A program made the translations under genes and the position numbers. DNA of 55,369 nt, filler included, from Sphacelaria rigidula (Eukaryota): assembly GCA_964200075.2 (NCBI GenBank). It is 3 parts of 3 records of this genome, joined end to end, with 100 filler letters (N's around TTAATTAATTAA, not from the genome) between each part and the next. Parts side by side here need not be neighbours in the genome. Positions count along the whole stretch, not along the records: positions 18,494 to 36,883 come from CAXNAA020000869.1; 2 more parts are not named here. One strand, 5' to 3'. Below are positions 1,136-36,983 of the stretch, in pieces (the first letter of the stretch is position 1; each line of letters opens with the position of its first letter). The notes below the pieces were generated by a model, which was not told the origin of the DNA, ran no database searches, and saw nothing but the letters and a program-made list of their open reading frames with translations.

Positions 1136-2363
1136 CGAGCTGGGCCAGCCTCAAAACGGATTGAAGCTCTCAAAGCAATATCTCATCGACATAGATGAGT
1201 TGGGCCATGATCCGCATATCGTATTAATCGTCTAACCAAGGGGAAGGTCCCCATCTGCTTATAAATCTGGGCCATTTTCCCCTCCTTGATTAAACCCCAT
1301 GTCTAGCAATTCCTTCCTATGCCGTACGGAGATAGCGTCCACATTAAAATCTCCATGAGACCCCGAACGATGCATTCAGCGGATGATGACGATTTTTGGT
1401 GTGGATCCTCCCTGGAGCATGGGGAGAAGATAGATACGCTCATCTTTACCCGATTCGTAATCTATATAGAGATCTGGCACACATAAGGTTCGATACAAAA
1501 ATCAATATATTACGAGCAGAGGCACTAGATGCCCTAAATCTGGATATCGCGTCTGAATTTTTGAAAGTTGTGCTATGAAATTTGGTATGGAGAACCGCTA
1601 CCTAGAGCATTATGGAAAAAAAAGACAGATTTTTACTTTTTTCGTTTATTTTTCATTTTTTGGTGTTTTTAGGGAAGTTTTCAGGAGGAATAAACATTGC
1701 TCTTGGGCCTTATCTCAATTTTTTGGCTCGATTTTAAAAATTGTGATTTGAAACTTAGCACAGACGACGACAGAGGTATGCTGAATAAATGAAAATGGTC
1801 CTTCTCTTTTTTTTTGGGGGGGGGGAGAGGTTCCGGCTTTCTCGTAAAGAAATGGTCGTTACCACACTAAAACGCCCTAAACCGGTGAAAAAATAATAAA
1901 AAAAACTGACCCATTGAGTTTTGTTACTCATGCCCTAGCGAGGGCCCACACAAAATTTCAATACATAAAGACCAAACGTGGGCCGGTGAGTGGCCTGCGA
2001 AATACTATTCCGATTTTTTACCGACCCGGTTTTTGAAAGGTCAATGCGCCGGCCAAAATTTAGAGTTGGAGCGTAAAATGTGGTGTGTACAATGCATAGG
2101 ACATGAAAAAATATTACAGAAGCACCAAAAGTTTTTTTTTCATGAGTTAAGGGCAATAATCAGTTTTCAGGTATCAGTAAAATGCTCTTAACTCATAAAA
2201 AAAAACTTCTAGTGCTTCTGTAATATATATATATATATATATATACATACATTATGCCCTAGAGCTATGCATTGTCCGTACCGAATTTTGCGCTCCAACT
2301 CTAAATATTGGCCGGCACATCCGCCTGCAAACTTCAAATTCGCCTCTTTGCTGGCCCAGCTCG
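1136..2363. mobile_element. Non-autonomous DNA transposon (Tc1/mariner-like, TA TSD), family TA-1 copy A
   Basis: 14-bp perfect TIR CGAGCTGGGCCAGC (1136-1149) / GCTGGCCCAGCTCG (2350-2363), flanked by TA on both sides. Interior homologous to 25857-26712; no transposase ORF. Confidence 0.85.
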
Positions 2364-3013
2364 TAGCGGCAGTCAGTACCCGGAAATACTTATTTGCATA
2401 CATTCAGGACTACAGTATGTGGCACTTGCTGGCTCTTTGTCTGCAGTTTGTGGTACTCTTATCTATCTTGCTGTCCGTAGCAACGAGAAAAGACAATATG
2501 CCACACTTTCGAAGGCAGCTGTCAACCGTAAACGTAATAGCTTTGTTGCTTGTGCAAGGGTTAAATTGATGTCTCACTTTGGCGTATAGTGTATAGCCGC
2601 CCGCACCGCAATGATAGTACTGAACTTGCCTTGTTAAAATACTGAGTATGCAGATTGAGTGTTTTACGCCCGCGTCGGTCAACAAAGGGGACGACAACAA
2701 AGTAACAGGCAAGCTACTCTGTAATAATGCCGGAAAAAGCAGTATTCACGGGTCACCTGAAGAATTTATCTCGGTGGTCTCAGATCGTCACTGAATGGTG
2801 TCGTCGTATCTCTTACACATATACAGCGTAACACCACTGTCACAAGGCGACCTTGCCCGAAACCGAAGCAGGCTACTCGCTTGTAGCGTCCTTGGCCCTT
2901 ATCGTGCTACCCGAACGATGGGAACGTGCTCTCATGACACCTGTGCAGCATAAAAAAAACATCGACCAGACTGAAATGTTACTATTGCCGTTTTCACTCG
3001 TTTGGCGTGGCAG

Positions 3014-6790: not shown

Positions 6791-9700
6791 CTAACTCTCA
6801 AGCGAACACAACATGGCCGTTCCATGAAGGATAAACTGCCGAATTGGCATATTCGTCAAGAACTCCACAGCAACCACGAAATTCGTAGAAACCCCCGTCG
6901 TGGACAGCTCTCCCCTCCTCTCTGAGGTCTTGTACGTCGGGCATACATAGTCATCTGTAAGGTTGGCGGGTCGAGTGTCCGAGAGTCGTCGAGGGAGATA
7001 TGATTAGTGAAATACGGGTGGAACCTATATACGCTTGGTCTTGTCATAGGAACTAGCAGCCAAATGCACTTTACTTGGTCGGAAATATGCACAGTTATCC
7101 TAAGCGAAGTGTGCCGCATTCCCGACTGCCCATGCAACTTGTTCTGGGCACAGCCTTCCCCAGCCGTAAGGAAAATCCTATCCAAGGTCGACAAAGCGAA
7201 AAAAGAGAAGAAAAAACACGCCTTAGGGTCGCGCGGAAACAAAAGTCGCAAGGAACATGCGTGTCACATGAGAACACCTACTATTTAGGTGATTTATTCA
7301 GCCAGCGTCACATGGTACCCCCCTCACCGGGGTTAGGCCTGTGGTTCGCCTCAGGCAAAAAGTGCACGATCGGAGCCGGTGCTCGCATCTGATCGGGACG
7401 GGGGTCGCAAAGGCGTTTGCTGGCATGATCCCACGATGCCCCCTCGATGTGCATACCGTAGACAAGCACGCCGTCGGGAGGGTGGCTAGATGCATCCTAA
7501 AAATGGTGCACGATGGGGAGCGAGAGAAATAGACGGTTGGTCGAAACAAGACGAGTGTGCGGACAAAAGGTTCTGATTGGTAATGCGGACCACTATTGTC
7601 CAAGTAGTTCCAAAGCGATGCCGCTCGATTGGTCGATTGGACAACAATACTGCTAATCATTCCTAGTTTGTAAACCTGGGTCTTTGCCAGCGAGGAATAC
7701 ATAGGCTTAGGGGTACTCGCCTGGAGTGTTCAATTACAGAACATTCAGTATCGATGGTTGTTTATCGCAACATTTGCAGCCCAAAAATATGTGGAAAGCT
7801 AGCGACCCAACAGCACGCCCCGACGACGTGACACGATGCAACATACTGTACACGCCACCACGCTGCCAATGATGCCAACAACCCAGTCACCAGTAACAAA
7901 GCAGCACAATGGAACGATCATAACAACAACCTTAATCCCCACCCACGAGAGAGAACACACGCGGCAAGCGAAGCGTGGCGAGATGTTTGCCTTTCAATAC
8001 AGCTCCACACGAAGTATTTAGTATTTACAGTTCTACACGGGTAAACGAAGCTAACACACTCAAAATGGCTTCAGGAGGCGGAGTGTACCGTGCTAGCTAT
8101 ATTCGTAATCCTTCCTTCACCAAGCGTTTCCTCCGTATACTTTCGTATATATCACCTTCAACTATAATTTCAGTCAAAAACGTCACAGAGTACGCCAGTA
8201 GTGCCACTGATTTCACGAGCATGATTCCCTCGTCGAAGGAGCAAGCGTCCCACGAGGCGGAGCTACACCGCGAATGGTTGGGCGTTCGACCAGGGTGTTG
8301 ATGGCTTTAGTTCAAGAACGCGCAACTTACCTGTACTACCCCCGCCTTTAGCATGCAGTAGCCAACAAAAAAAAAGTCGGAAGACTTCACGCACGCACAT
8401 ACTCCCTTGACTTGAGAGCGCCTGATCAGTTGCTCTATAGTCGCTTATCTGATCTTCCGACGAAGGGGTGAAAGGTAACTCCTTTCGTATTCGTACCTGC
8501 GGTTGCTCAATGTCCGGAAATTGATACTTGAAGCCCAACAGATTCACCGGGACTGCGTGCTTTCGCGCGTGGTTTTGTAAAATGGCCGTCAAAAAGCCCT
8601 GCGGATAATAAGTAACGGATTGGGCAGCGTGAGTACGGTCGAACGTTTTGAATCGATCGATGGTTGAAGTGGATAATCAACGGCGGTCAGAGTGAAGCTG
8701 AACGGACACGAAGGGGTCAACTATCACGAGGCACGAGGAGCGCCTTCGTGACCGACCCCACTCCTGCTTACATTGCTTACGTTGGCAACATTGCTATGAT
8801 CCCCATACCTTGTGCGGTTACTTTGTAGTCACCTGGGGGAAAAAAAAGGCAGGCAGCGCGTACGCGTAGGGGTTTCCACGTTCTAGCCACAGCTCGAAGA
8901 ACCGCACTCTCCATCTCAGCTCCTTTATCCAAGACCCCAGCGGCTTCAGGCTCGCAAATCCTCGCCGACGCCACTGGTCCGGCACTTGATTAATGAGAAA
9001 GTTGATGTACACCTGCAGCGAATCAGACACAGAAAGGGCAAGTAGGTACGAGAAAGTTAGCCGTGGAATCAGCCGGTATTTATTTCAAGATAAAGGTATT
9101 ATTATGGACGGGACTGGACTTGTTTCTAAGACTTCCCAGACTTCTCAAACGTTCCCCTTTTCCCGAGAACTTGGAGCGTTTTCCTGACTTCTCCTGAATC
9201 ATCCAACGAAAAAACCCGCCCAACAAAAAGTCCGACGCTAGATTTTGCGAGTAATCTGTAGTCAGTCTTGATTTGATTTATTACCTGACCTGTGTAAGAT
9301 ATTCGCAATCACATTCTTCGGAGAAGAAGTTTTCTCCCGGAAAATTCGGAGATTTCGTCTCAAAAAAAGGCCCGCTAGTGGGACCCCTGAAAAATCAAAA
9401 CATCATTTTTCGGCTGATTGTCCATGACTGTTTTGACATCCTGCAAGAATTGTTCACCCATTTTGGCAGAGTATCATGAAGCTTAAGTATTTCCTAATGT
9501 CGCATCTTCTGTATCCAAGCATTCATGTTCCATGATGTGTAGTAGATGAAGTTCGTACACTAACATCTTTTCCTAAATTTGTACAAGTATAGCGACTACA
9601 AAGCAGTCAAAATTGATTTTATCACTTTGAACTCCGCAAGTGCGGTCACCTTTTCGGGAGCTGTCGAGCACTGTTGTCATGCTGCCGGAACTTCTGTGCA

Positions 9701-12700
9701 AGCAATTTCGGGTCAATTTCGGTATGGCCTAAGGCCAACAACCATTCTGACCTTGTCGAGTTCAGGTGTCATCACGGTCTCTCCCTTCACCGCCAGCACG
9801 AGTTGCTCCACCGTGGTACGGACGATCTGATCAATTGAGCGCGGGACGACGTTCTTTTTACATGATCGAGACAAGAAACTCAAAGCTTTCTATGAGATTG
9901 GCGGAGTTCCCGGCAACAATTCACACCTGTTGCTGACCGATTTTGCGAGGAGAAAATTCCTGAGGGCATCACACGCTCTTCGGTAGACGAAGATATCCTA
10001 TTCGTAGGTATACCTGAAGTAAGCCGTTACAGTTGTCCAGCTCCTGGATCAAAACGGTCGCCAAGCTATCCGTATTGGACGCCCCCGGCTCCATACTGGA
10101 TCCTCGCCGAGTGAGATGATTCACGGCTCCTGCCTGTAGCGGGAATGATCGAATGTTGGATACAATCGGGCAAATGTGAGCACACGCCATGTGGCCATCG
10201 GACGTCGCCCGTGGTACACTGTTGCGAAAGCTTCGCTTCAGATCGACCGTTGCCTCCGTAGGCGAGCGTTTGCTTGCGATATCCTTCGGCAAATATTAAC
10301 AGGGTAATGTTTCCAGTAATATAATCGTATTGCAGCGGCATCCTCCTATTATTGAGACCTGGACATAATGGCGCATTCCTATGGCTCGGGGCTGGTCATA
10401 CTTTAGAACAGCACGGCGCAACTTACGGCACACACTAGGGGCTTGACCTGTCGGTGTTTCAGGCCACCCGGTATCCTTGCAACAAGCTCTTGGGTAACCG
10501 CGAGAACAACGTCATCCGGCCGTTGCCCGATGGGGGCGTTGGCATCCCGCGGTTGCAAAGCGAGAACGGCATCCAGCAGGGCATTGCTCTCCTTTAACCG
10601 AAGTGAGATGTCCGCCTGGATTTTGTTAGAAAAGACATGTGTCTTACGTAAGACTTGCGAACGTGTGGCTCCGTACTGTCTTCCTGCCATCAATCTTTTG
10701 TTGCCAACGGTTACAGGTCACAGGTACACACAACAGTATCACTAAGATATACATTATTTTCAGTTCGACGTGCTACATTTGGGGTGCTCATCGCGGTCTC
10801 TGCACTGGTGCATGTACGCGTGGTGGCCGTGGACACCCCATCGAACACACAGACTCGAGACAGTCAAAGGGACTTCGTGAAGTTCATGAAGGAGGTACAA
10901 CAAGGACTATATGTGATGCAATAGCTGACACTATCGACTGTGGCATGATGAACTGTGACAACTGGTCGTTTGCGCACCGAGGCGTGCATGCCAAACATTT
11001 GCGGGCCATCTTCTGGCGGTATTTGCTCGATGTAGCTCCGGTAACTCTCGGATGGGGCGTCTACAGGTGCCGCTGCTATCATCGCCGACGACGCGGACAG
11101 CCGCCGAACCAGTCGCGCCTTTGTCTTCGAAGAACCGCTTTTGTCATCTGGGCTTCCTCTCAAACCAGACACTGGTGAAACGCCTCCAGCACTTGGCAGC
11201 TGTAATGCGCGGAGTTCGGGATAAGCAAACGCCAACCTAATGAAAGAAATGTAACCATATATGTTGTGCACTTCAGAGATTGGGCAATCCACGGTATGGC
11301 CTGGGGGGACGTTCAACAACAGAGCCATTCATCGTCGGTAGTTGCAGCGACTGACTTCAAGCTGTGTGTTTGACATCTGCCACAATTTTAGCAAAGTCTG
11401 GGTGACCTGGAGACGAAGAAGTCGAAGAGGCTCACATTTTCACCAAATATGCTTGCCGTGTAGAAGTGATCCAGCACTGCCAACAAGCACCGTCGATCCC
11501 ACTCGTCGGTTACCCAACCGCCATAAGTGATGTTCCCAGTCACGTAAACGAGACTTTCCACGGGTAGGGTGGCCAGGCTGGCCTTAGACGGGTCGGGGTG
11601 AAGATGGTCCACGAACCGACCTAGAAGTTTGAACGCCGTATCCAGATCGGAGTCCCCGAAATTGTACGTTACATTCCAACCTAGAGGGCCGAATTTTACC
11701 CTAGGAAGATCACGCAAACAGTACGGCAGGGATTGAGAAGGTACAGAGGCCAATTTGACAGGAGATGTGAGCGAGAGCGAACGATTCCCAGCGTTTGAAG
11801 TATGGGTGTCGAACGTGATACAGAAATACGGACCCTGCGGTATGTGCTAATCGGCACGTCAAAATAGCGGAGGAAAACACGTTACGCGGGTTCCGGTGTT
11901 TGGCTGGCAATTGTAGATCGAACTCAGCAACGTATTTCATGCGGTGCTGTTGCTGTCTATAGACAGCTCCCAGGGTGCGACATTTCTCTCGCGCGGGAGT
12001 CAAGTGCACAGACGGCCGAACGGTATGGTCGACCACAACCGTAATGACAACAAGAATATGGTCCAAGACCAGAGGTAGGGTGTACGGTCGATCGAATGTA
12101 CGCGCAGGCTCAGGTCCGGAAGTTCTCGCCCACCTCTCTTGCACGACCGCGTGGAAGAAGCAAAGACCGAACAAAAGACGCTTCCATTCGGCAGGCCTCT
12201 GAATGCCCTCGCCCTCTTCTCGGCTCAAGATTTCTGACATCTGCTTGAAGCAAAAGGGCGCCAGAATCAACAACATACATCGAGTGATGAAATTAAGCAG
12301 TTCCCTCCCCAATGCAGGGATGCGACAAACGCAATGAGGGTGAAAACAATGCTTTAATCTCTTGACCGTAGCGGCAAAGCACGCGCGAATGGGCTCAGCA
12401 CCACGGCAGTGGATCTCGACATCAAAAGTCAACGTCTCGATTACTGCAAACGCAAGCCCCGCCAACAATCACCTGTAGGTTGTAAGACCGCCGGAGGTTT
12501 GCCTGTATTCCTCGAGGTGGTTCGTCCGTGATTTTAACGCTTCTTTGTAGGACACTGACGGGAAAAAACGGTACAGCGGCGGCACTAAGGAATAACCTAA
12601 AGCCTAATCTTGCGTCCTCTCGATTGTTGCCCAGCTGCTTCACAATACGATCGAGGGTAGGCAACCACGAACAAGCCAGGTGGCAGTTCTGTAACATCAC

Positions 12701-15700
12701 CCAGGTGCCGCCCAACCTCGCCGCCTGGGTTGAGAGAACGCGCGACACAAGGGAATGGTCAGCCCACGAAGAGCGTCAGGGATGGCAAGATAGTCAGGAA
12801 GATGCTCGGATGGCCGTTTGTAACGGTCGGGGTATAGATACCATGAACGAGGGTGGTCATCAAGACATCAAGCACAAATGAATCGTCGAGTGTTTGCCAT
12901 ATTCCATTATTCAATACCCATTGTAGGACATCGACAGCCCTTGTTGGTGTCCCAAGCATGGAGAAGTTCGGTATAAGGTGGACATTGTTGATTGCGAGAG
13001 TATTTAAGGTGAGATAGTTCGGCGGCCAAGACTGCGTTTACACCGTTTCTCGATTTAAATGCAGGTTTCCCCATTGTTGTAGCGTTTCGGCCTCAAATTG
13101 GGTCCCTCGAGCTGCCCACCGCGATCAATACACAGCGTAAAACCACACCCTGCGAGAATAGTCTGGCACGAAATGCCTACCCTTGCCTAGCCACGTGAAG
13201 GTGATGCCATGAGTCCTGCGTTGCTGCTCCTGGCTCATGCGATGCTGGAGTCCGAGCTAGCCTACTACAAGCTCTATTGATAGTAGGTAGGCCCTCATGA
13301 CGTTTTCCGTTGAAATGCTTTCACTTGCCACTGTATAGATTTTGAGGTAATGGCATGGCTGTGGCATGGTTGAAATGGCTGGACGCACTCTATCCTACCA
13401 GTTCACTGGGCTACTACGCTCAAGAATTTATTGTTGGGGTGATCTTGAACCTAGCCAATCAATGGTGGGCACTCTATACTCAAGCGACGCACGGCTCGAA
13501 TATTTCATGGAGTTTGGAAGGGCCATGCCGTGAGCAAGTATTTAGTTGTTCCCATGGTGTATCAATAGTGGTATGGAACTAACTTACCATAGACCGAGCT
13601 CAAGCGAAGGGTAGTGAGGGCCCATGAGTGCCGCTTGCCACAAGGAAACACATGATAACGCTGCAATGTAGTGTGGACCCGATTCAGGGCGGTAATCACC
13701 GTAAAGAGATTTCCGCGTAGGTTTCGATTCTACGGCAGTTTCAACGATGAACAGATATTCCTTACCCCACCTCGACAATTGCCTCAGCCCGGGGGCCTTG
13801 CCCCCTGCCCAGGGACACCACTTCAAGCCCTGTCTCCATTCCCATAGAAGAAGCGTACTTTAGTAGCAAAGCCATCGGATCGGCGCCTGGCGAGAGAACG
13901 AAGACACATGGAGTGTTCTCGTTCACGTCCGCGAAAACCTGTGATGCACAGCACACACGCAAGAGCTGGTCGGAGCCCTTGAAATTGGATTCATTATGGT
14001 GAAGCGGACGAGCTTGGGATGGCATCCCCTGCTACGTGCATGCGTTCGGACATAATTTTAAGGTAGATTGTACACGAGGCTAAAGCCCAAAGGTACAGTA
14101 CCAGGCGTAGGCAAGCCTCAGGTGATGAAGGTGTCTTGGTGTGTGCTCACCTCGTCGATTCCCGCCGCACTTCCCGAATGTCGAATCAAGTCTCGCCCGA
14201 GGTAGTGCTCGACCAAGTCAGCTACGGCTCCATGGGTGCAAGCCTTTGACCCGGGAAATATGTGAGGAAGTGTAACGGTGGAAGCCACACCATGCATATT
14301 ATGGTAGGTGAGATATGCGTCATCTCAACATGGGGTACGTGTAGGGCAAACGCCGGTAAGGGTGGTAGGAGTGTTCCTTATATCGGCGACGCTGTGCCGT
14401 GCCTAGCGATACATGCTCACCTTAGCCAGAGTGCGAACAACGATGACCTTCTGGAAGCGGTTGAGTTTTTCCTCCCATCCACCTGGCAGCGGGGCTCGGT
14501 GTGCCGCGGCATCCGTCCGCCAGTCCTGCCACTGTGTCCACAACTCAGCGACAGATGTGCAGATCTCGCGCATAGCAGCAACCGTACTCTCAGCGTGTTT
14601 CAGCGTCTGCCAGTCCTGCCGGATGCGTGCAAAGTGTAGTATATGCAGCACGAATAGTAACGTAACACACGAGAATGCCAGCATCGTGTATGTGAAAAAT
14701 TACAGGACGAGATACACTATGCTGCAGAAACGATGAAGTCCACGAGGAAAAGTAAGACCTGAGTACTTCCCCCTCTCGAAAACAAGATATTAAAAGCAAT
14801 CGAGAGCTGGCTCACCCGGTCGTCCAATGTTACTGGATCTGGATTTTTCACGAGTTGGCTTGCTCTCTGCTCGTTGAGTCTCCCTCGACTCGTTCTCCTT
14901 CGGAGGTCAGGGCGCGCCCCTTGTAACAGTAGCATCCACTCAACAGCTGATATCTACAAATCGCGAAGAAATATTAGTGCGTAGACTTCATGTGATAATG
15001 TGAGAATCGATAGCGGCAGAAGAGCACAGCGTTGAAGTAGCACACGTTTTTAGTGTTTGTTACTTGGCGCTCTCGTGTTTCGTCTCCAAGACGCTGTCGG
15101 CGTCATATATGTTTCTGAAACCATAAAACCGATCGATCAAAACAGATGATGATAAAATAATATAATGATCCCCTGTGAGAATGACTTCTTCGAGCAAGGG
15201 AGGACGGTTTGATGGGGTCGCGAGCTATAACTCGTTGATGTTCCGTACCGACATCTGACACCTTTAGAAAAGAATAGAGTCGTGGGATTGACTTTCCACG
15301 GACACGCTCGACCGAGGGTGCCATAATATATGTTATGTTATTCATCTCCTGGACCTCGCGGTGAACACACCGAGCAGCGTCATATTTTAGGGTTACTGTA
15401 ATCCTTCGCACGCACAGCGTATGAACATTTGGAGTTCCATGGCAAACTGTGCTACAACAATTGGATTGGAGCATAAATGACTGGACTTTGGTTACAACCA
15501 TTCTGCATGACGGCATGAAAAACAAAATGCATCGAGGATCAACCTGGCTTCCTGGTTGCAAGATAGGCAAATGGTTCGTGGTCACCACACCTCTCCCGAG
15601 GCTCGAAGGACGCCGGTGCAAAGCATAAAGGCAAAAAGCAGCTTATGACGTTCAAATAGCCCTCTCGACACCGCACGATACACGGCCTCTGTACTCTTGT

Positions 15701-18178
15701 CCTGGAGATGTTGCAGCCTGACTTGCAAATCTTCGCGCCCAGATTTTAAGGTTTCCATTATGCAGTTGGTGAAAAGGAGCTGCCGACGGACAAGAGGTCA
15801 TGAGAGTCGGCGGGAGTAAGAACACGCTTACGTTTGTCGTTCCAGTGTCAGGAAATCAGAGCGGTTACGTCCTGTGGAACGATATCTCGATGTTTACACC
15901 TGATCCTTCGGAATAAAAAGAAGGCTTCGCAACCATGACCGATGTTGACACATGAAGGGGGAGCGATGTGAACCAACCCTTTTCTGTAACCATGATAATT
16001 GTGCCATCATCTGCAAGAGTATCCCAATCAGCTTACCTGGAAGTAGTCCAAGCTGTACTGATACATGGCATCCACTTTGCAAAGCTCGGCGATGGTAAAG
16101 TACAGCAAGGAGCCACGGACAGCAAGTGGTTGGTAGCGCTCCCTGCTTTCTCCGATCTGTCTCTGCGTGTTCTTGCTGTCGGCGAGACGCTCACCGATCG
16201 CCTTGCTCATGGTCTTGGATTTGCTGAGAGTAATGATGAGAGTCTGCGGTAATATGGACATGAGGATTTTCCGTATTATACGGGACGCTTTGACCATGTC
16301 ACGTCACCAAGAGGCGAGGTAAGCAACGTCGAATTTATCGTCTCGTGGCTGACAGGTATGGAATTATTGAGCAGAGAGAGACAGGGGGCCCATAAAAAAA
16401 TCAGTGACAAGCACATTCGCAAACTTAGCGTCGGCTGTCATTGTGCAGTGATATGGTCGCACTTGCAAGCAAGGACACACCTCATCTTCTAGGACATTCA
16501 CCCCGCTGCCGGCATCGTTCAGGAGACCCAGAATCTGGTTTTCCAGCTCCAATAGCTGCTTTTTATCGGTCGCGATGCTCGTGATGAGATTGTGATGCCG
16601 ATCTTCTAGCTCCGGCTGCTCGAGCGTCACCACCTGCATTTTTCCATGTGGTGATGGTTCAGCACCAGGACATGCCTTGAACCGCCTTGCTAAAGTATGC
16701 ACATACATGCATTACGATTCGACGATATTTCGACAGGTGGGGTGCATTCTGCTGTAGTGACAAGAATGTCACGCACGGCCCTGCCGTGGGTTCTGCGCGC
16801 TGCTGCCCACACCAACAGAGTTTGGCTTTACCATATCCTACTTCACATGATGTCCGCACCATTTTAAGCGAACACTTGAGCAATCGGGTAGTGGCACACT
16901 CACAGCCCCAAGTAGTTGTTCTTCCAGTCCGCGCCGAGTTACGGTGAAGTTGATCAGGTTGACTTTGATAGCGGTGTCAGCTTGGAATTCCGGGTTCGAC
17001 AGTTCGGTGGTGAGGTATAGCCGGAAGTTGCTGTTGTACTCCACATCCGTGCTCCCCAGAGGCAACATGGTTCGCCCCCCCTGGAGCTTTTTCGTTCAGA
17101 CACGCACGGCGGTCGCAATCGTATCATATGTTGAACTTTACGTGAATTGGTTGTCGCTTGATACGTGCTAGGCACAAAGTGCGGGGAATGCCCGTTCGCC
17201 TGAGCATCCCATTCCATTAGCCTCTATAGTTTCGTCCTTCCACACGCATACAGCTGCAAGGAGCAAGTATGGCACATAACCATCAACGTAGTGGAAGAGC
17301 GAACGTTACACAGTAATACTCACCTTGGTGTAGGTGCGATGGCACAGTATCGGATCCAAAACGGGATCGATGGTCGAGTCGACATCTTCTATCAAGAGAC
17401 GCTTCCCTTCTGTTATCGACGACTGCAGAATTGACAGAAGAGAGGGATTGCCAATGTTCACGCAGCAGAAGCCCTCTGATGTTGTCCTCGTGCGGTGACT
17501 GTTGAGTGCGAGAGGCGTATCAGTTGCTGAAGGTTTGGCCCATTCATCCCTATTTCGCATAGCCTCTGGGTGGTCAAAAGGCGTTCAAGGTGCGAAAAGA
17601 CGATCGCGAAAGACACGCTCCACGGTTAGAACAATCTCAGTCAAAGGTGACGCGTAGCCGAGAATGCAAAACATCGAGAACTCGCAGCATGTCGGAGAAC
17701 ATTGCTCACATGTGGAAACAGCCTATGCGGACATAAAAAAAAATGGTCCAAATATTTTCTGATGATTGAATTGTTAGGAGCCCTCTCTCTCAACCAATAA
17801 ACGGCTTATGAAATGTATGATAGCACGCCACGATTAGCGCTCTAATGGGCTAGGGATATCCCGAATTCATTTGAAAACGGTAATGTGGGTACCCACATTT
17901 TTGCGTAGCTCGCAACTTTAGGGGCCACTGAATGAGGAAGATCTGGGCCCAAATGTGCAACCCCTACCGTAGCATGACTTCCAGTATGCCACACGTATCG
18001 CCAACGGCTACGTACCCATTTGGCTCAACCAGCGGCAGGCCTGTCGTTGCGGGTCTATAAGCAGTGGCCATCTTCCAGTCTCCACAGTTGTGGCCATGAT
18101 GGCGTTCTCCACCGAAGTTCTGTCGCTGGGCAATCCCATCAGGTGCCATTCCCGCAACACCACGGGCTTACCGAGGAC
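6791..18178 (-). CDS. Axonemal inner-arm dynein heavy chain (DNAH6-like), C-terminal ~1,180 aa (AAA5, AAA6, lid, C-terminal domain); 5' part lost at the contig end
   Basis: 21 phase-consistent GT-AG exons: 18016-18178, 17324-17565, 16904-17080, 16481-16633, 16037-16243, 15591-15779, 14816-14953, 14421-14615, 14151-14243, 13771-13938, 12473-12724, 12134-12240, 11436-11700, 10978-11199, 10448-10615, 10014-10133, 9752-9826, 8833-9012, 8497-8598, 7328-7496, 6791-6954. Motifs: RWPLLIDPQ, FRLYLTT, INFTVT, MYQYSL, GLFERHKLLF, LSPGADP, SLGRGQG, WVMLQNCHL, FFHAVVQER, KFGPLGWN, SLKPLGSW, FFPQGFLTAILQNHARK, CPTYKTSERRGELSTTG. Stop TAG at 6791-6793. Confidence 0.95.
17750..17980. mobile_element. Sola2-like MITE, degenerate copy in a dynein intron
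   Basis: One TIR (gtgcaacccctaccgtagcatgactt). Interior matches the reverse complement of 49209-49465. The other TIR is not recognisable. Confidence 0.6.
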
Positions 18179-18393
18179 CTGCCACACAAGAAAGGCAGGA
18201 AGAGCGGCAGGTTTGCATGGCGCAACATGACGGCCTGCATGAACGACTTGTCTACATCAACCTCCTGGTGGTGGGGCTCGCTCAAGAAATGATATTTCCA
18301 GACGCTTTCACAACCCTTGTAATACGTGAGAGGACCGCGTGCTTAGAGGACCCCGCCGTAGTTCAAAATACCCCAGGATCGACGTTTTTCAAA

Positions 18394-18493
18394 NNNNNNN
18401 NNNNNNNNNNNNNNNNNNNNNNNNNNNNNNNNNNNNNTTAATTAATTAANNNNNNNNNNNNNNNNNNNNNNNNNNNNNNNNNNNNNNNNNNNN
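18394..18493. other. Assembly spacer (100 bp) with artificial TTAATTAATTAA linker
   Basis: N44-TTAATTAATTAA-N44; the linker has stop codons in all six frames. Confidence 0.95.
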
Positions 18494-21435: not shown

Positions 21436-21599
21436 TGCAATAATCACTCCTTTACACCCAGGTACAGAACATTCCAAGACCCGTTCATTGAACGAGGTTA
21501 CACAAGCAGCGACTACTGTTGTACAAGCCTAAGCAACGAAATTGTTATCCGACCAGGAGTATTTATCAACCTCGACTGACTGCTTAAAGCCCTCTGCGA

Positions 21600-22062
21600 G
21601 CGCTCCGAATATCCGCTTCTGCAACGATGCTGGCCACGCCACACTGTCGATCGGCTATTCAATTCAGGAGCCCCAGAACGTCAGATAACAAGCCACATCA
21701 TGACCTCAAACGACTGTTGGCATCGACATCCCCGAGGCAGCTGCAGCGGCCTTGTAACCACGATAAACCCTCAACCAGCGCGTTGAAGCATTTCCAAATA
21801 TCAGCTGATGCAGTGACGAACGCTATGCAACGCCTTTGATGCACTTGTTCATTTATTCTCAAACGCCAGCTGCTGCAGCGACGCTGGCTACCCTAACCTT
21901 CGACGAGTAGGTTCGAGCGATTTCCGAACGTCGGTCATTGGAACGACACAGGTCAAACCACGCCTTTGACGGGCTTGTTTTGTATCCACTCGTCAGCTGC
22001 TGCAGCAACGCTGGCCACGCCATATCCTGGCTCGGCTGGTTAAAGTAAGCTCCGAACGTCAG
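21600..22062 (-). pseudogene. Decayed FNIP repeats continuing past the stop codon
   Basis: Reading through the TAG gives LTFGAYFNQPSQDMAWPALLQQLT, followed by increasingly frameshifted 66-bp-like units (recurring cagctgctgcagc and ggccacgcc on the + strand). Confidence 0.75.
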
Positions 22063-23670
22063 CTACTGCAGCGACGCAAGCCACGCAACATCCTTAATCG
22101 GCTGGTTAAAGCCATTTCCGAATGTCAACTGCTGCAGCGACGCAGGCCACGCCACACCCTGGATCGACTGGTTGAAGCCGTATCCGAAATTCAGCTGCTG
22201 CAGCGACGCAGGCCACGCCACACCCTCGATCGCCTGGTTGAAGCAGTATCCGAAATTCAGCTGCTGCAGCGACGCAGGCCACGCCACACCCTCGATCGAC
22301 TGATTGAAGCAATGTCCGAAAGTCAGTTGTTGTAGCGATCCTGGCAACACCACACCCTCGATCGGCTGATTGAAGGAATCTCCGAAGTTTAGCTGCTGCA
22401 GCGCAGGCCACGCGACACCCTCGATCGCCTGGTTGAACATTGTCCCGAATGCCAGCTGCTGCAGCGACGCAGGCCACGCCACACCCTCGATCGGCTGGTT
22501 GAAGTAACCTTCGAGCGTCAGCTGCTGCAGCGACTCAGGCCACGTTACACCCTCGATCGACTGATTAAACCTTACTCCGAACGTCAGCCTCTGCAGCAGC
22601 GAAGGCCATGCCACGCCCTCGATCGACTGGTCGAAGCAATATCCGAACTCCACCTGCTGCACCGACGCAGGCCACGCCACACCCTGGATCAACTGGTTGA
22701 ACATCATTCCGAACGTCAGCTGCTGCAGCGATCCGGGCCACGCCACACCCTCAATCGGCTGGTTGAACATCATTCCGAACGTCAGCTGCTGTAGCGACGC
22801 AGGCCATGCCACACCCTCGATCGGCTGGTTGAAGCGACCTCCGAACGTCAGCTGATGCAGCGACGCGAGCCACGCGACACCCTCGATCGGCTGGTTGAAC
22901 GCTTTTCCAAACGTCAGCTGATGCAGCGACGCAGGCCACGCCACACCCTCGATCGGCTGGTCGAAGACGCAATCGAAATTAAGCTGCTTCAGCGACGCAG
23001 GCCACGCCACACCCTCGATCGGCTGGTTGAAGGCATAACCGAACTCCAGCTGCTGCAGCGACGCGGGCCACGCCACATCCTCGATCGGCTGGTTGAAGGC
23101 ATGATCGAATTTCAGCTGCTGCAGCGACGCAGGCCACGCCACACCCTCGATAGGCTGGTTGAAGTCTTTTCCGAACGTCAGCTGCTGCAGCGACATAGGC
23201 CACGCGACACCCTCGATGGGCTGATTGAACCTTGTCCCGAACGTCAGCTGCTGCAGCGATGCAGGCCAGACCACCTTCGTGATGGGTTGATTGAAGTCTA
23301 TCGGCATTGGACCACCACGACCTCTGAACACAATTTCCCGGACTTGCGGGGGCCAGATAATATAGTCCAGACTATGGTCAAACATACAGCCAAAGTGCCA
23401 GTTTTGCACTTGGGCCAAAATATTGGTGTTGCATGACATGATTGCCGCGTTAGCACTAAACATCCACAAGATACTGTGTGCTCGTAATGAGGGCACTCGA
23501 GGTTCAGCATTGCGATCCATTCTTCCAGCTATCATAGTCGGAGATTGCTCGGCGGGATCGGCCCATAGCCTGCGCGGTGTAGACCTATCAACTTTCACCA
23601 ATAGCGTGCTTACGCCGCGGCAAGCGATGCAGAGCTGTAGTGATGCCAGCTGTAATTGTTTTGTTGGCAA
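22063..23670 (-). CDS. Intronless FNIP-type (22-aa LRR-like) tandem repeat protein, possibly truncated or pseudogenising
   Basis: 18 complete units plus one interrupted unit of FNQPIEGVAWPASLQQLxFGxx (66 bp each, one unit 63 bp) at 23295-22063, after a ~125-aa non-repeat N-terminal region. The ORF-track start is TTG; the first in-frame ATG is at 23535. Confidence 0.85.
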   Translation of the reverse strand: MPTKQLQLASLQLCIACRGVSTLLVKVDRSTPRRLWADPAEQSPTMIAGRMDRNAEPRVPSLRAHSILWMFSANAAIMSCNTNILAQVQNWHFGCMFDHSLDYIIWPPQVREIVFRGRGGPMPIDFNQPITKVVWPASLQQLTFGTRFNQPIEGVAWPMSLQQLTFGKDFNQPIEGVAWPASLQQLKFDHAFNQPIEDVAWPASLQQLEFGYAFNQPIEGVAWPASLKQLNFDCVFDQPIEGVAWPASLHQLTFGKAFNQPIEGVAWLASLHQLTFGGRFNQPIEGVAWPASLQQLTFGMMFNQPIEGVAWPGSLQQLTFGMMFNQLIQGVAWPASVQQVEFGYCFDQSIEGVAWPSLLQRLTFGVRFNQSIEGVTWPESLQQLTLEGYFNQPIEGVAWPASLQQLAFGTMFNQAIEGVAWPALQQLNFGDSFNQPIEGVVLPGSLQQLTFGHCFNQSIEGVAWPASLQQLNFGYCFNQAIEGVAWPASLQQLNFGYGFNQSIQGVAWPASLQQLTFGNGFNQPIKDVAWLASLQ

Positions 23671-23883
23671 ATACGACCGACCACCTGAGGAAGCCTCGTT
23701 GAGGGTGGTGATGAAGGCGTCCAGACAAAGGTTGCTGCCTGTGTCACAAACATGGAGCGAGCGCTGTGCGGTTTAGCTTGTCTGGGATTACTATTATCAA
23801 GCAGCGACGTGAAACCCGTCGCGAGTTGACGACGCAACCTCGGTCGGTACACATCCTCAACGAACGACGAAGGAATCGGACTA

Positions 23884-25856: not shown

Positions 25857-26712
25857 CGGGCTGGGCCAGCCTAAAAACGGCTTCAAGCTCTAAAAGCAAT
25901 ATCTCATCGACGTAGACGACTTAGGCCGCGATCCGCATATCGTATTAATCGTCTAATCAAGGGGAAGGTGCCCATCTGCTCAGAACTTTGGGCCCATATT
26001 GTCTCGTCGATTAAATCTCATGTCTAGTAATTCCTATACCTAAGGGAGATAGCGCCAATACTAAACTCTCTATGGAACTCCCGATCGATGCATTTAGCGG
26101 ATGGCGACGAATTTTGGTGTGGAGAACCACAAAAGAGTGCCGAATGAAAAAAACAAAAATGGGCCCTTCATTTTTTTTTTCACAGAGGTTGGAGCGTTCT
26201 CGTGAAATATGGTCTTTACGATAGTAGAATGCCCTAAACCAGTGAAAAAATGAAAAAAATCAACCTGACCCACTTTTTTTGTTCATTGTGCATTAGAGAG
26301 CGCCCGCACAAAATTTTAATACACGAAAACCAAACGTGGGTCGGTGAGTGGCCTGCGAAATACTGTTCCGGATTTCTACCGACCCGTTTTTTTAATAGGC
26401 CCATTCTTGTATATATATATATAGAGTTGGACCCTGAAATTTAGTGTGGACAATGAATAGGGCATAAAAAACAAAATACTGCGGTACCAAAATGTTTTCG
26501 TTTTTTTTCATGAGTTAAGGGCAATAATCGGTTTTCAGGTATCAGTAAAATGCCCCTAACTCATGAAAAAAAACGAAAACATTTTGGTACCGCCGTAATT
26601 TTTTTTGTAAGCCTTATGCATTGTTCATACCAAAATTCAGGGTCCAACTTCAAATGTATAGAAGAGAATGGGCCTGCAAACTTCAAATCCGCCTCTAGGC
26701 TGGCCCAGCTCG
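25857..26712. mobile_element. Non-autonomous DNA transposon, family TA-1 copy B
   Basis: TIR CGGGCTGGGCCAGCCTA / TAGGCTGGCCCAGCTCG with TA TSD. Collinear with 1136-2363 but about 370 bp shorter. Confidence 0.85.
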
Positions 26713-29039: not shown

Positions 29040-29453
29040 TGAGGGTACGGATATGTTCTGTATGGTACGGGATTCCTTAGATAACTTGAAGAAATATCGG
29101 GTACGGGTATGAATGTCATACAGAATTTACAAAATAATCGGGTGACGGTATGTATTACAGAAACTACAGAACTTGCCGGGTAGGGTATGGGAGGCTCACA
29201 GAGAACCGTACCGGCAACCGGGTATTTCTTCAAGGGTATACCCACGCCCCGGGTTAGGGTAGACATTATGTACATACCTCACAGGACGGTCGGGCAAGGG
29301 TATGTAGGTTGCCCAGAAAACTGGACTCGCAATCATATTTTGTCAAAAGTATAACTATGCCCCCCCTAACCGTACGGGGGGCTTACAGAACTCACGGAAC
29401 TATCGGGTAAGGGTATAAAAGAGTCAGAGGTTACAGAACTGTAGGGTACCGGT
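29040..29453. repeat. Degenerate ~35-40-bp tandem repeat patch (gggtacgggtatg...acagaactt-like)
   Basis: Recurring motifs cgggtacgggtatg, gggtagggtatg, gggtaagggtat and acagaac; one part is inverted (catacc, tacccacgccccggg). Confidence 0.6.
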
Positions 29454-30480
29454 TTGAGTACGGTGGTACTCAAGATAGTCGCGACTCGCCTTAGCGCTTA
29501 TTACGAGTGGAAGGGCATCCTCCCAGAAGCACAATGGGAATTCCGAACTGGCCGGTCCACAGTCGACATGATGGTTGTACGCAGACTCCAAGAGCTGGCC
29601 AGAGAGAAAAATCTTCCTCTGTGTATGTGCTTCATCGACCTCCAGAACGCATGCGACTCGGTGGACCGCTCTCTTCTCTGGAAAGTTCAAGCACGCTACG
29701 GTATCCCCGCCAAGGTAATTTCCATTATCCGCCGCTTCCACGACGGCATGCGGGCATGCGTACGCCTGGACAGCGGCGAGACGTCTCAGTGGCATCACGT
29801 GAACCAGGGCCTCCGCCAAGGGTGTGTGCTTTCCCCTGATCTGTTTAGCATCTTTTCCGCGGCGGTGCTGACGGTAACGTTCGACCGCTTCTCGGTCAAT
29901 AGAGCGGTGGTGCGAGACGTCATCCGCATCGCTGGAAGGGGCGGGAAGACCAAGGACGAAGTCAGCAAAGTGCTCTGTGCAATACGCCGACGACGCTGGC
30001 ATCGCTTCGCGGTCCCGGGTAAGCCTGGCGAAGCTCACGACGGCCCCCGTCGAAGTGTGTGCAGTATTCGGTCTCGTCGTCGCGGAGAAAAAGACGGTCA
30101 AGTGGCACATGCGCTCCCCGAACATGGAGAATCGAGGTGGAGGCAGCGGGCCAAAGAAACAAGCAATTTGAGTCGTTCCTCTACCTGGGTGGAAAGATCA
30201 GCAACATCGGTCATGTCACTCCCGAGACCCACAGCCGAATCGGCCAGGCCTGGACGTGCTTCTACAATCACAGCAAAGCGGTATACGAAAACCCGTGCAT
30301 CGCCCTCGACACCGAGGTTCGTCTCCTAAAGACTGAAGTGATCGAGGGAATGCTGAACGGCTGCGTGACCTGGACGATCGCACACGACGATTTCGGCGCG
30401 TTACGGAAGGCCCATCGAGGATTCCTGCTGAGGTGCCTCAATAAGCATACCTCATGCCGCAGCGCCTCATGCCGCGGGCC
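29454..30480 (+). mobile_element. RTE-clade non-LTR retrotransposon (LINE) reverse transcriptase, frameshifted relic
   Basis: Three overlapping frames give ILPEAQ.EFRTGRSTVDM, FIDL..A.DSVDR, QGLRQGCVLSPDLF, YADD, FLYLG and GCVTWT, typical RTE RT motifs; at least two frameshifts. Confidence 0.9.
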
Positions 30481-32236
30481 AACCCCAGGGTGTTGCGACA
30501 GACAGCTACTGCGGCAACATATATATCGCCTCCTACGAACCCAACGCGAAGCGCATTAGCCTGACAAAATGAGCAATTTATGTCACAGATTTAGGTGTTT
30601 CATACAAAACTCGTCAACGCAAAAGCTACAAAGTCTACTGGATCGAAAAAGATACATGCGTGCTTCAAAGACTATGAGAACTCCATCGCGAAAAGTTTGA
30701 CGGGATTTCAACCATGCTGTGCATTCAACGACGGGGCAGAGTTTGCCAACCATACACATTCCGGAACTCCGAAGCGTGCGATACAAAGATTTGGTACACA
30801 GCCCGCATCCGACAGTGACTGTACAGTTTTGTGGTAGCCCTCAAATATCAAGAGGAGAGTGGTCGACGACGTGCAAACTCCGAACAGGTACACGAAAGAC
30901 ATGAAACCTGTTCTGAGTACAAAATACAGCAAACTGTGAACCACAAGTGCAGCACGAGGCGCAGAGCTCACATTTGCCAGCAATGGCCATGTGACGGGAA
31001 ACCACCGTACCTGTTGTGTTGCTTTCAGGGGCTGTCTTGACACATATTTAGGGTTGCGAGAAGATGCGGCGAGACAAAGAAAAAAATAACACCGTGATGG
31101 ATCCACGTTGTTTCTGTTCATCATTCTTTCATAATCCTTTGCACCCCAACAGAAGTGTAAATGTTAGGGCTGTGAAGTGGAGCAGTTTGTACTGGCAGTT
31201 AAACTGTGACTGGACTTTAACTGGAACTGGTGATGAGGACTCCAGTTTATCCAGTTTATTTGAAGTTTGCCGTTACCGGCTACGTTGATACCATTTTTAG
31301 TATAGTGATTATATAACAAGGATGCTCACGTGATTACGAACAAACTGACACTAGGATTGGGGTCTGCACCTAACAGAGTACAGTACCGTACTCGTGGTAA
31401 CTACACCTAGAAGTGATATTGCGGATGTATGCCAGGTTTGTCGTTTCATAGCACGACATCTGGAATAAAAAAATAGTAAACAAACGGCAATCCGCTACCA
31501 CAAAATACAAAGTATACCATGGCTTGCAATTCAACTGCATGCGTGCTTGTGGGTCCCGACGTGAATCATTTTGCGCTTTTATCTCCGCGTGCTGCCAGCC
31601 TCGGTTTGTTTGCATCCTCCTCTCCTTACGGAGAGTCTGCTGCTGCATATTACAGATGAATGGTTTTCGAATCGCTCACCGTTTGAATGGGATTTGAATG
31701 TCATCCGAGAGTGCCCAACAAAAGAATTCGAGACCCTATGCCCCTTTTTCGAATTGTGGAGTTTTTTCTTGGGTGGGGGGGGGTGGGGTGGGGCTAATAA
31801 ATCTCATACATGAAAAAATGAGAGATAAAAACAAAGAAATAAATTGAAATGTATGTGAAAAAATCAAATTCGTGTTGATGAAGCTTCAATTCTTCGCATT
31901 CATTCGGAGCCAACTAAGGCCAAGTTATATTCATGGGTTTCGGCAATACGTTGCACATCACACTCTCAAGACAAGAAGACCAGACAAGTACCACAATGCT
32001 CTGCAATGTTTGCTCATGCTAAACGCATCTATCTGCACCGTCAATTTACGTCCAATGTGCGTCGCATCTTGTAGTGGCAGATGGGGCCAACAATAATGGG
32101 CGCCACCTCACCCAAGTCGGGCTCAAATGGCTATTTATTGAGTGTTTCTTGACGTGAAAAAAAAACTCCTGCGACCGCTGGAGGGGGGGGGGGGGGGGGG
32201 GGGGGGGTGCCCCAGGGTTAGGGGGGGGGAGGGGCT

Positions 32237-32246
32237 NNNNNNNNNN
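32237..32246. other. 10-N gap within a poly-G tract
   Basis: Ns flanked by long G runs; locally low-quality sequence. Confidence 0.9.
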
Positions 32247-32344
32247 GGGGGAAGGTGTGGGGAGGGGGTGGGGGGGGGGGGGCGGCGTCGAGGCGGAGCG
32301 GAGGAGGATGGGGGGGGGGCATTGCTGTGTCATCCAGAAATTTT

Positions 32345-32968
32345 TAGGGCTGTGAACTGGAGCAGTTTGTACTGGCAGTTAAACTGTGACTGGAGTTTAA
32401 CTGGAACTGGTAATGAGGACTCCAGTTTATCCAGTTTTTTTCAAGCTTGCCGTTACCGGCTATGCTTATACCATTTTTAGTATGGTTCGTTTAGAACAAA
32501 GATGCTTACATGATTACGGACAAAATGACAGTAGGATTGGGGTCTGCACCGGACAGCAGTACAGGAACTCGCAGTACAGTACAGTAATAGTGGTCACTAA
32601 ACCTTGAGGTGACTTTGCGGATATATGCCAGGTTTGTCGTTTCATAGCATAACATACATCTGGAATAAAAAATAGTAAACGAACGGTAGTCCGCGACCAC
32701 AAAATACAAAGTACACCATGGCTTGCAATTCAACTGCATGCGTGCTTGTGGGTCCCGACGTGAATCATTTTGCGCTTTTATCCCCGCGTGCTGCCAGCCT
32801 CGGCTTGTTTGCATTCTTCCCTCCTCACGGAGAGTCTGCTGCTACATATTACAGATGCATGGTTTTCGAATCGCTCACCGCTTTGAATGGGATTTGAATA
32901 TCATCCGAGATTGCCCCCCCCAAAAACAATCCGAGACCCTATGCCCCGTTTTTGAATTCTGGAGTCTT

Positions 32969-33027
<59 letters not shown>

Positions 33028-33740
33028 AAATCTTATACATAGTATAAAATTATGAAAAATAAAATAAATAAAATAAATAATAAAAATAAAATAAATAATA
33101 AAAATAAAACAAATAGTACATAAAAAATTAAAATTCGTGTTCATGGAGCTTTAATTTTTCGCATACCTTCGGAGCCAAGTAAGGCCAAGTTATATTTATG
33201 GGTTTCGGCAATACGTTGCATATCACACTCCCACGACAAGAACAAGACCAGACTAGTACCACAATGTTCTGCAATGCTTGCTCAATCAAGCTAGACGCAA
33301 CTATCTGCACCGTCAATTTGTGCCCAATGTGCGTCGCATCTCGTGGTGGCAGATAGGGCCAACAATCGTGGGCGCTACCTCACCCAAGTCGCCCCAAAAT
33401 GGCGATTTATTGAGTGTTTCTCAATGTGAAGAAAAACAAAATCCTGCGACCGCCGAGGGGGGGGAACGTGCACAGGATCTCGGAGGGTTTTTCGTCGGGC
33501 ACTCCTTTGTCATCCAAGACTTCAAGCTCCTCAATGTGAGGGGTCACATTTTCTACATTTCTCCACATTTTTGAAGGAGAAACAAGCCAAATACCGCAAA
33601 ATTTCTCGCTTCCGGCAGCGCTCCCGCGGGGCCCCCTCACCAGCCGGGGGGGCCCGTTGAACTGGAAAACAATCGATGTACTGGCCGCGCCAGCGGTCAG
33701 TTTGAACTTAAGTGGCCAGAGCAGCCAGTTCACAGCCCTG
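32345..33740 (+). mobile_element. hAT-type non-autonomous element, inner copy nested in the same family
   Basis: TIR TAGGGCTGTGAACTGG / CCAGTTCACAGCCCTG; 8-bp TSD GAAATTTT / GAAAATTT (one mismatch). Homologous along its length to the outer copy; contains (GT)n at ~32972-33023 and (AAAAT)n at ~33056-33110. Confidence 0.85.
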
Positions 33741-36883: not shown

Positions 36884-36983
36884 NNNNNNNNNNNNNNNNN
36901 NNNNNNNNNNNNNNNNNNNNNNNNNNNTTAATTAATTAANNNNNNNNNNNNNNNNNNNNNNNNNNNNNNNNNNNNNNNNNNNN
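36884..36983. other. Assembly spacer (100 bp) with artificial TTAATTAATTAA linker
   Basis: Same structure as 18394-18493. Confidence 0.95.

Follow-up and report, generated by a model that had tools for sequence, protein, structure and literature searches.

We analysed a 55,369-nucleotide stretch of DNA from Sphacelaria rigidula (GenBank assembly GCA_964200075.2), which we refer to as the window, and found that the 66-bp tandem array on its minus strand encodes a protein that belongs with certainty to the FNIP/FGxxFN leucine-rich-repeat (LRR) family, within it to the 'WP' subclass typified by CroV539 and to the large brown-algal subfamily. Each repeat unit contains a slot of two residues, the xx between FG and FN, and in two unrelated arrays, this one and another from a viral-collection contig, xx turnover exceeds synonymous turnover. 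The explanation that we favour as a whole, and which we consider probable, is that the locus is a known type of WP-class FNIP member with a variable binding stripe, that its xx slot is under selection, and that this particular copy is damaged.

Family assignment, fold and position of the slot

Tandem Repeats Finder placed the array at 21991-23268 (19.4 copies, 80% matches, score 1419), within an open frame at 22063-23670 whose stop-to-stop extent reaches 23772. Cutting at the FNQ motif gave 20 consecutive units, of which units 1-18 are regular and in frame, unit 19 holds a stop codon and unit 20 lies beyond it; all but one of the 18 in-frame units have exactly 22 residues, and we number the 22 columns of a unit from the first x (column 1). 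The protein matched the Pfam family FNIP (PF05725) with 272.1 bits against a cut-off of 21 (E 1.3e-82, 12 stretches), and phmmer against solved structures returned CroV588 (6NYR, E 1.9e-111) and CroV539 (7ZAL, E 6.2e-63). An AlphaFold model based on 48 aligned sequences reached a mean predicted local distance difference test score (pLDDT) of 81 and a predicted template modelling score (pTM) of 0.80, with pLDDT 95-98 over residues ~160-355. The top Foldseek matches to this model were 6NYR (6e-24), then 7ZAL (1.7e-15, template modelling (TM) score 0.67), with generic LRR receptors (TLR, LGR, YopM) behind. Pfam, phmmer, the model and Foldseek thus agree on the LRR-like FNIP solenoid that had been proposed in a first reading of the DNA made without database searches (the sequence-only reading).

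In units 2-18 the FGxxFN motif is represented by F21 in 16 of 17 units, G22 in 14, F3 in all 17 and N4 in 15 (the other two carry D), and the marks of the WP subclass by P at column 6 (10/17), W at column 12 (16/17) and P at column 13 (16/17), these three columns being positions 13, 19 and 20 in the LxxLxFG... numbering. The unit consensus agrees with the CroV539-class consensus quoted in PMC9525666. CroV539 has the 22-residue unit and the consensus LxxLxFGxxFNQPIExVxWPxx in common with the window protein, as well as the same variable positions, 8-9 (xx) and 5, but it has 12 units where the window protein has 18-20, and a 15-residue N-cap where the latter has a brown-alga-specific N-terminal module of ~117 residues. 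CroV539 is moreover a viral gene, whereas the window copy lies in an algal nuclear context, lacks a C-terminal cap and is probably truncated. CroV588, the best match in both sequence and fold, has the double-phenylalanine FGxxFN core in common, yet according to the published accounts it carries LP for WP, lacks the proline of position 13, has a His/Tyr ladder and forms a closed ring of 25 units, and the window units belong to the other subclass.

Strands recur in the model every 22 residues on columns 18-21, and because they fall there, column 20 belongs to the concave sheet and xx follows directly on the FG turn. In the architecture that we propose, each unit would add one turn to a curved solenoid, with L16, L19, F21 and F3 forming the buried core and columns 18-21 providing the concave-sheet strand; the xx pair between FG and FN would sit at the sheet edge, beside column 20 on the sheet, and over ~18 turns xx and column 20 would merge into one continuous variable stripe. 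Judging from homologous crystal structures and the strand register of the model, on which the placement of the stripe rests, it is most likely the ligand-binding surface. PMC9525666, which reports the crystal structures, describes the xx of FGxxFN as the most variable site across such proteins, situated at the concave edge and probably setting ligand specificity; it places positions 8-9 on that edge and position 5 (the LxF site) as the only variable site on the concave face, considers that the family probably binds ligands via its concave side, and likens the repertoires to variable lymphocyte receptors. By this placement and by the strand register the three variable sites of the sequence-only reading lie together. 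The hypervariable slot that it points out is the defining xx of the published motif, tied in the same paper to ligand recognition. The observation is real and the family assignment sure, and the reading of the stripe as a recognition surface is reasonable but is the view of the family already in print. With variable lymphocyte receptors and LRR receptors such as TLR, LGR and YopM the protein has in common a curved LRR solenoid with variable residues on its concave side, although the FGxxFN core is described as shifting the Asn ladder and adding a double Phe spine, and the FGxxFN variable residues lie more on the edge than on the face.

A probably damaged copy

On the sequence evidence this copy is probably a damaged or truncated relic, with no start before its N-terminal module, a nonsense codon in unit 19, no cap and decayed 3' units. 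A profile of the N-terminal module (25 of the 120 listed homologs) matched ahead of the array with an independent E-value (i-E) of 7.9e-28; no N-terminal Pfam family was found for the module, in which the model places helices at residues 15-28 and 37-53. Scanning of the frame revealed no in-frame ATG between the upstream stop and codon 80 (Table 1), and a start at that codon would cost 68 of the 117 matched module residues. A tblastn search of the window for an upstream exon, using the N-terminal extensions of homologs (>60 residues before the ELQLASL motif), gave matches scattered over the window with a best E of 0.19. At the other end of the frame, the TAG of unit 19 is a single C-to-T change from the CAG of neighbouring units. 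It is not an assembly error, because error-free contigs over 21926-22154 from three runs of two studies (X1, X2 and X6) cover the site and carry TAG. Past unit 20, recognisable tail units at 21923, 21793 and 21604 are spaced by 62, 130 and 189 bp instead of the multiples of 66 bp that an intact array would give, and frameshifts accompany the further in-frame stops. When the profile of the C-terminal cap (the WMPNLE...GIEWP region) was searched for, only its repeat-like part matched, the best downstream match lying at 21571-21669 (i-E 0.019, positions 12-41 of 107).

Several observations weigh against damage. The frame stays open over its full length (Table 1), it keeps 83 of 88 near-invariant family columns, which ranks it 15th of 48 and better than most annotated relatives, and the ratio of nonsynonymous to synonymous change (dN/dS) in the frames among units is 0.32 by the unit-tree count. 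A cap is not universal, since only 22 of the 120 homologs listed matched the cap motif, and some homologs likewise end without one; a protein ending after 18 units might still fold, and an upstream exon joined near 23760 is possible. All of this would suit an intact, expressed gene whose start comes from a 5' exon outside the frame, whose natural end falls after unit 18 or 19, and whose decayed units are 3' untranslated remains. The annotated homologs vary from 11 to 186 residues ahead of the ELQLASL motif, and introns are common, the dynein gene of the window having at least 14 exons, both of which fit such a start. However, the homologs' N-terminal extensions have only the scattered matches mentioned above, the stop lies one base from CAG with the array continuing in frame beyond it, which argues for a mutation and not a designed end, and the tail contains frameshifts and stops. 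We regard a live gene, judged from its sequence features, as a tentative possibility, less likely than a relic.

This copy is thus probably not a working receptor. Of the modular receptor proposed in the sequence-only reading, the binding surface holds, as the reasonable and already published view, while a working receptor at this locus probably does not, since the copy lacks a usable start, carries a nonsense codon and ends in a decayed tail. The same reading described the gene as intronless in an intron-rich genome; the genome is indeed intron-rich, to judge from at least 14 dynein exons in 11.4 kb, but intronless applies to the 1.7-kb frame only, a 5' exon being possible.

Variability and turnover of the xx slot

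Amino acid entropy over units 2-18 was 3.03 and 2.97 bits at the two residues before FNQ, 1.82 bits at the LxF site (column 20; T/K/E/N/A), 1.55 and 1.44 bits at columns 6 and 14, and at most 0.83 bits at the remaining 17 columns. The cut units reproduce exactly the xx pairs that had been listed from the sequence (TR, KD, HA ... NG, with AY past the stop) and the T/K/E/N/A variation at LxF. Between units, the six xx nucleotides differ with p=0.695 (random ~0.75) versus p=0.236 at four-fold degenerate third positions of the frame, which bears out the earlier statement that change is concentrated in 6 nt while the flanks, synonymous sites included, are conserved. The variability of xx is far beyond chance. 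Among the 18 units there are 17 distinct xx hexamers; the only one to recur is ATGATG (Met-Met), in units 9 and 10 (22642-22773), which suggests a recent single-unit duplication.

A similar pattern is seen across the family. In the 74 of 120 listed homologs with at least six regular units (552 units in total), mean entropy within proteins peaks at columns 1-2 (2.34 and 2.31 bits, the next column 1.93), which are the top entropy pair in 29 of the 74. Compared with the family, the frames of this copy are unusually uniform (their mean entropy is 0.56 bits where the median is 1.00, the fifth lowest of 75 proteins), and it has the largest xx-versus-frame contrast of the 75.

In this array the proportion of nonsynonymous differences at xx, pN(xx), was 0.730, against a synonymous proportion pS(frame) of 0.283 and a pN(frame) of 0.107. 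The ratio pN(xx)/pS(frame) was 2.61 (bootstrap 2.00-3.42), and 0 of 500 unit resamples gave a value of 1 or less. The 14 nearest-neighbour unit pairs showed 0.094 differences per nt in their frames versus 0.714 per nt in xx, and parsimony on the unit tree counted 9.2 nonsynonymous changes per xx site versus 2.4 synonymous changes per frame site (p=3.5e-9). Codon choice follows the column: proline is encoded by CCG at column 6 and by CCT at column 13, glycine by GGT at column 9 and by GGA at column 22. Since one amino acid is thus encoded differently from column to column, codon bias does not explain the synonymous similarity of the frames, which comes from descent. The viral-collection array (L001 in Table 1), the one independent array for which DNA was obtained, gave pN(xx)=0.728 and pS(frame)=0.421 over 14 regular units, which makes the ratio 1.73 (1.46-2.00); none of the 300 resamples fell to 1 or lower. 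Both ratios show xx changing faster than synonymous sites, which supports the sequence-only reading on this point.

The residues in the slot also depart from codon expectation. L, I, F, W and P, a set picked after the data were seen, account for 0 of 36 xx residues here versus 23-26% expected, and family-wide (1466 xx residues) P, I, L, V and T reach 0.12-0.37 of the frequency expected from codons, and D 3.2 times that frequency. The usage of xx residues is clearly filtered, hence the slot is not neutral. From the measured rates we infer that xx is selected and kept diverse, not merely unconstrained. Under this model units would arise via tandem duplication, their frames would be kept alike by shared descent and probably also by conversion, and xx codons would be replaced faster than synonymous sites while avoiding proline and aliphatic residues.

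A number of points count against selected diversity. The choice of the L/I/F/W/P set after inspection is one; the unit tree was fitted to the frame columns, which biases its count towards an xx excess, and we therefore give more weight to the tree-free figures. At 0.73, with a ceiling of ~0.75, the xx sites are saturated, which means that the ratio is chiefly a measure of how far the frame is from saturation, and units within one array are not independent lineages. Column 20 changes at a rate not above the synonymous one (p=0.34, unit-tree count), and the third variable site at LxF, which the sequence-only reading had placed under diversifying selection, is thus not distinguished from neutral. 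Finally, short conversion tracts ending at the mismatched xx block could yield the pattern without positive selection. The neutral alternative takes xx as the least constrained surface loop, between 60-nt frames homogenised by short conversion tracts that stop at the six mismatched bases, in which case the synonymous divergence of the frames would under-report their age. It is consistent with saturation in both arrays and with column-specific codons, which point to descent or conversion and not codon bias. It would also fit the hundreds of contigs found in each of the four runs examined with 90-99% similarity over the units and the N-terminal module (855 in X1, a depth that is not a copy number), as expected of family-wide homogenisation. 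Against it, the filtered usage of xx residues indicates some selection on the slot, the same excess is present in the unrelated viral-collection array, and conversion tracts limited to less than 60 nt would be unusually short. We consider neutrality doubtful, somewhat more so than the live gene discussed above. No published positive-selection test on FNIP repeats was found in the literature, where the FGxxFN papers were represented mostly by their titles and abstracts.

Possible viral links

Other findings raise the question of whether the locus arrived recently with an integrated giant virus, as an endogenous viral element decaying along with it. An FNIP pseudogene lies inside an Ectocarpus viral fragment (PMC2373305), and the closest relatives of brown-algal FNIP sequences are reported to come from CroV (PMC4421812). 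A unit-alignment scan returned one viral locus and three metagenome loci, one of the latter on the same contig as the viral one; the viral locus is the WP-class array L001 on its 49-kb contig, whereas L002 and L004 comprise few units only (the L004 match spans 39 bases). However, the scan of 137 open frames of at least 95 residues in the window yielded only dynein exons and one reverse-transcriptase fragment, and no viral hallmark domain; a single-protein scan found no close relative in the viral collection, and a repeat search of the window found no terminal repeats flanking the FNIP locus. We tried the N-terminal module as a common element of the window and L001 proteins and rejected it (hidden Markov model (HMM) E 0.17, BLASTP E 23), and its absence there speaks against viral insertion as well. 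A recent viral arrival at this site is quite unlikely.

The N-terminal F-box that marks the F-box + FNIP proteins of giant viruses was not among the six families matched by the window protein at E<=1. The 48 aligned members matched 30 families, and the 25 of these that were listed did not include it either. Atlas neighbours of the N-terminal module scored 0.82-0.84 (the F-box ones 0.82), below the reliability line and in a range often reached by shuffled sequences. Separately, the start of L002, an 11-kb metagenome contig (1-2767 examined), holds a short FNIP remnant, and the frames adjoining it resemble, by eye only, an exonuclease and a ribonucleotide-reductase small subunit.

The brown-algal family and what it may recognise

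The window contains one FNIP locus, with all tblastn matches of six full-length homologs falling within 21553-23748. Its 465 significant homologs include no self hit, so the Sphacelaria rigidula proteome was probably absent from the collection searched; the best are brown-algal proteins (Scytosiphon, Ectocarpus, Pylaiella, Ascophyllum, Undaria and others) at 32-54% identity, and this copy has the N-terminal module and the WP-class units in common with them, but differs by its missing start before the module, the nonsense codon in a unit and the decayed tail. A word-based search with residues 1-128, the N-terminal module, returned only two proteins. In virophages that otherwise hardly differ, PMC10945749 reports the FNIP gene as a hypervariable region. 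Large FNIP families of brown algae are in print, and the family has been characterised before as expanded and virus-related: PMC4421812 counts 121 FNIP proteins in Saccharina japonica, an HMM search in PMC9525666 gave 104 sequences from a brown alga, mostly with WP, and FNIP is described as among the largest orthogroups in brown algae (bioRxiv 10.64898/2026.04.27.720984). The hundreds of contigs of 90-99% similarity described above point to many close paralogs in Sphacelaria rigidula. Some contig joints skip 858 bp (13 units) or 1188 bp (18 units), but their sides are just 21-30 letters long in a multi-copy family and may stem from paralogs.

A broader reading, speculative and on the unlikely side, is that the FNIP/FGxxFN genes of brown algae form a germline recognition repertoire evolving like the cassettes of transcription activator-like effectors (TALEs) or variable lymphocyte receptors, with frames homogenised across many units and paralogs through conversion and unequal exchange, xx kept different by selection, and truncated copies such as this one serving as a reservoir from which recombination could bring units into working paralogs. 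If this were true, the family would be a candidate pathogen- or virus-sensing system of brown algae. If the xx turnover were also found on orthologous arrays, it would provide a handle on what the FNIP repertoires of brown algae, slime moulds and giant viruses recognise. As it stands, our finding is mostly a renewed description of the feature that gave this published family its name, seen in a single copy that is probably dead. New, in a modest way, are the measurements of xx turnover in two arrays, faster than synonymous yet filtered, and the direct value is one of annotation, of an FNIP/FGxxFN pseudogene or truncated gene in a window that also holds a dynein heavy-chain gene.

A TALE repeat is helical, has ~34 residues and recognises DNA bases through a repeat-variable di-residue. 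By analogy the window protein might be programmable, with every xx pair reading one unit of a linear polymer, but this is highly improbable: the likeness is a formal one, of near-identical repeats that differ in two adjacent hypervariable residues, whereas the window unit is a 22-residue turn of a beta-solenoid LRR fold with no code evident, the distinct hexamers counted above leave no small recurring xx alphabet, and the part of PMC9525666 cited here contains no ligand of polymer kind. The 'programmable', TALE-like code of the sequence-only reading accordingly finds no support.

Features and surroundings of the locus

Table 1. Coordinates of the FNIP locus in the window, with the FNIP frame of the viral-collection contig for comparison.
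Feature	Position	Strand	Description
Open frame	22063..23772	-	569 codons and TAG stop; upstream bound TAA 23773-23775; first in-frame ATG 23535 (codon 80)
N-terminal module, brown-algal FNIP subfamily	23389..23739	-	Profile match; two model helices, then cap strands; begins upstream of the first in-frame ATG
Sole ATG near the 5' end of the frame	23751..23753	-	One base out of frame with the open frame
18 regular in-frame units (17 x 66 bp, 1 x 63 bp)	22117..23301	-	Consensus xxFNQPIEGVAWPASLQQLTFG; xx slot is unit codons 1-2
Unit 10	22642-22707	-	Deviant at several frame columns; poorly modelled, residues 359-375
Unit 14	22381..22443	-	21 residues (one codon short); low model confidence, residues 447-455
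Unit 19, with TAG 22063-22065	22051..22116	-	Neighbouring units have CAG or CAA in that column; TAG ends the frame
Unit 20	21985..22050	-	Past the stop; same frame kept, more diverged
Decayed array tail	21560..21984	-	Unit spacings off multiples of 66; six further in-frame stops; no recognisable C-terminal cap
FNIP frame of L001 (coordinates of that contig)	1157-2740		At the end of a 49-kb viral-collection contig; open-ended, 528 residues, at least 14 regular WP-class units

The main neighbour in the window is the 3' part of a dynein heavy-chain gene at 6794-18193 on the minus strand, with at least 14 exons in 11.4 kb, which match residues 610-1839 of a 1842-residue relative and include the Pfam domains AAA_9, Dynein_heavy D6, AAA_lid_11 and Dynein_C. 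Residues 1-609 of the relative found no match anywhere from 18.2 to 55.4 kb of the window, and the dynein gene may be cut off or interrupted near 18.2 kb. We also considered whether the FNIP locus lies inside a dynein intron, which is unsupported, as those first 609 residues have no match beyond 18.2 kb.

Near the last detectable dynein exon, just upstream of it, lies the first of two identical-looking structures of 44 N, 12 bases and 44 N, at 18394-18493 and 36884-36983, the first of which reads TTAATTAATTAA; a further run of N occupies 32237-32246. These N structures look like scaffolding linkers or masked stretches and not biology.

The description of the contig as transposon-dense holds less well, as the open frames scanned included a single transposon-type domain, a reverse-transcriptase fragment (RVT_1, E 1.2e-14) at 29445-30329 on the plus strand. 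An inverted repeat at 26414-26660, whose distance to the 5' end of the FNIP frame is ~2.6 kb, has arms of 110 nt that are 85% complementary and 27 nt apart, and may represent a small foldback transposon or else an element that folds into a hairpin. Simple repeats cluster at 32183-33126 and comprise 25 consecutive G, (GT)27 and an A-rich minisatellite.

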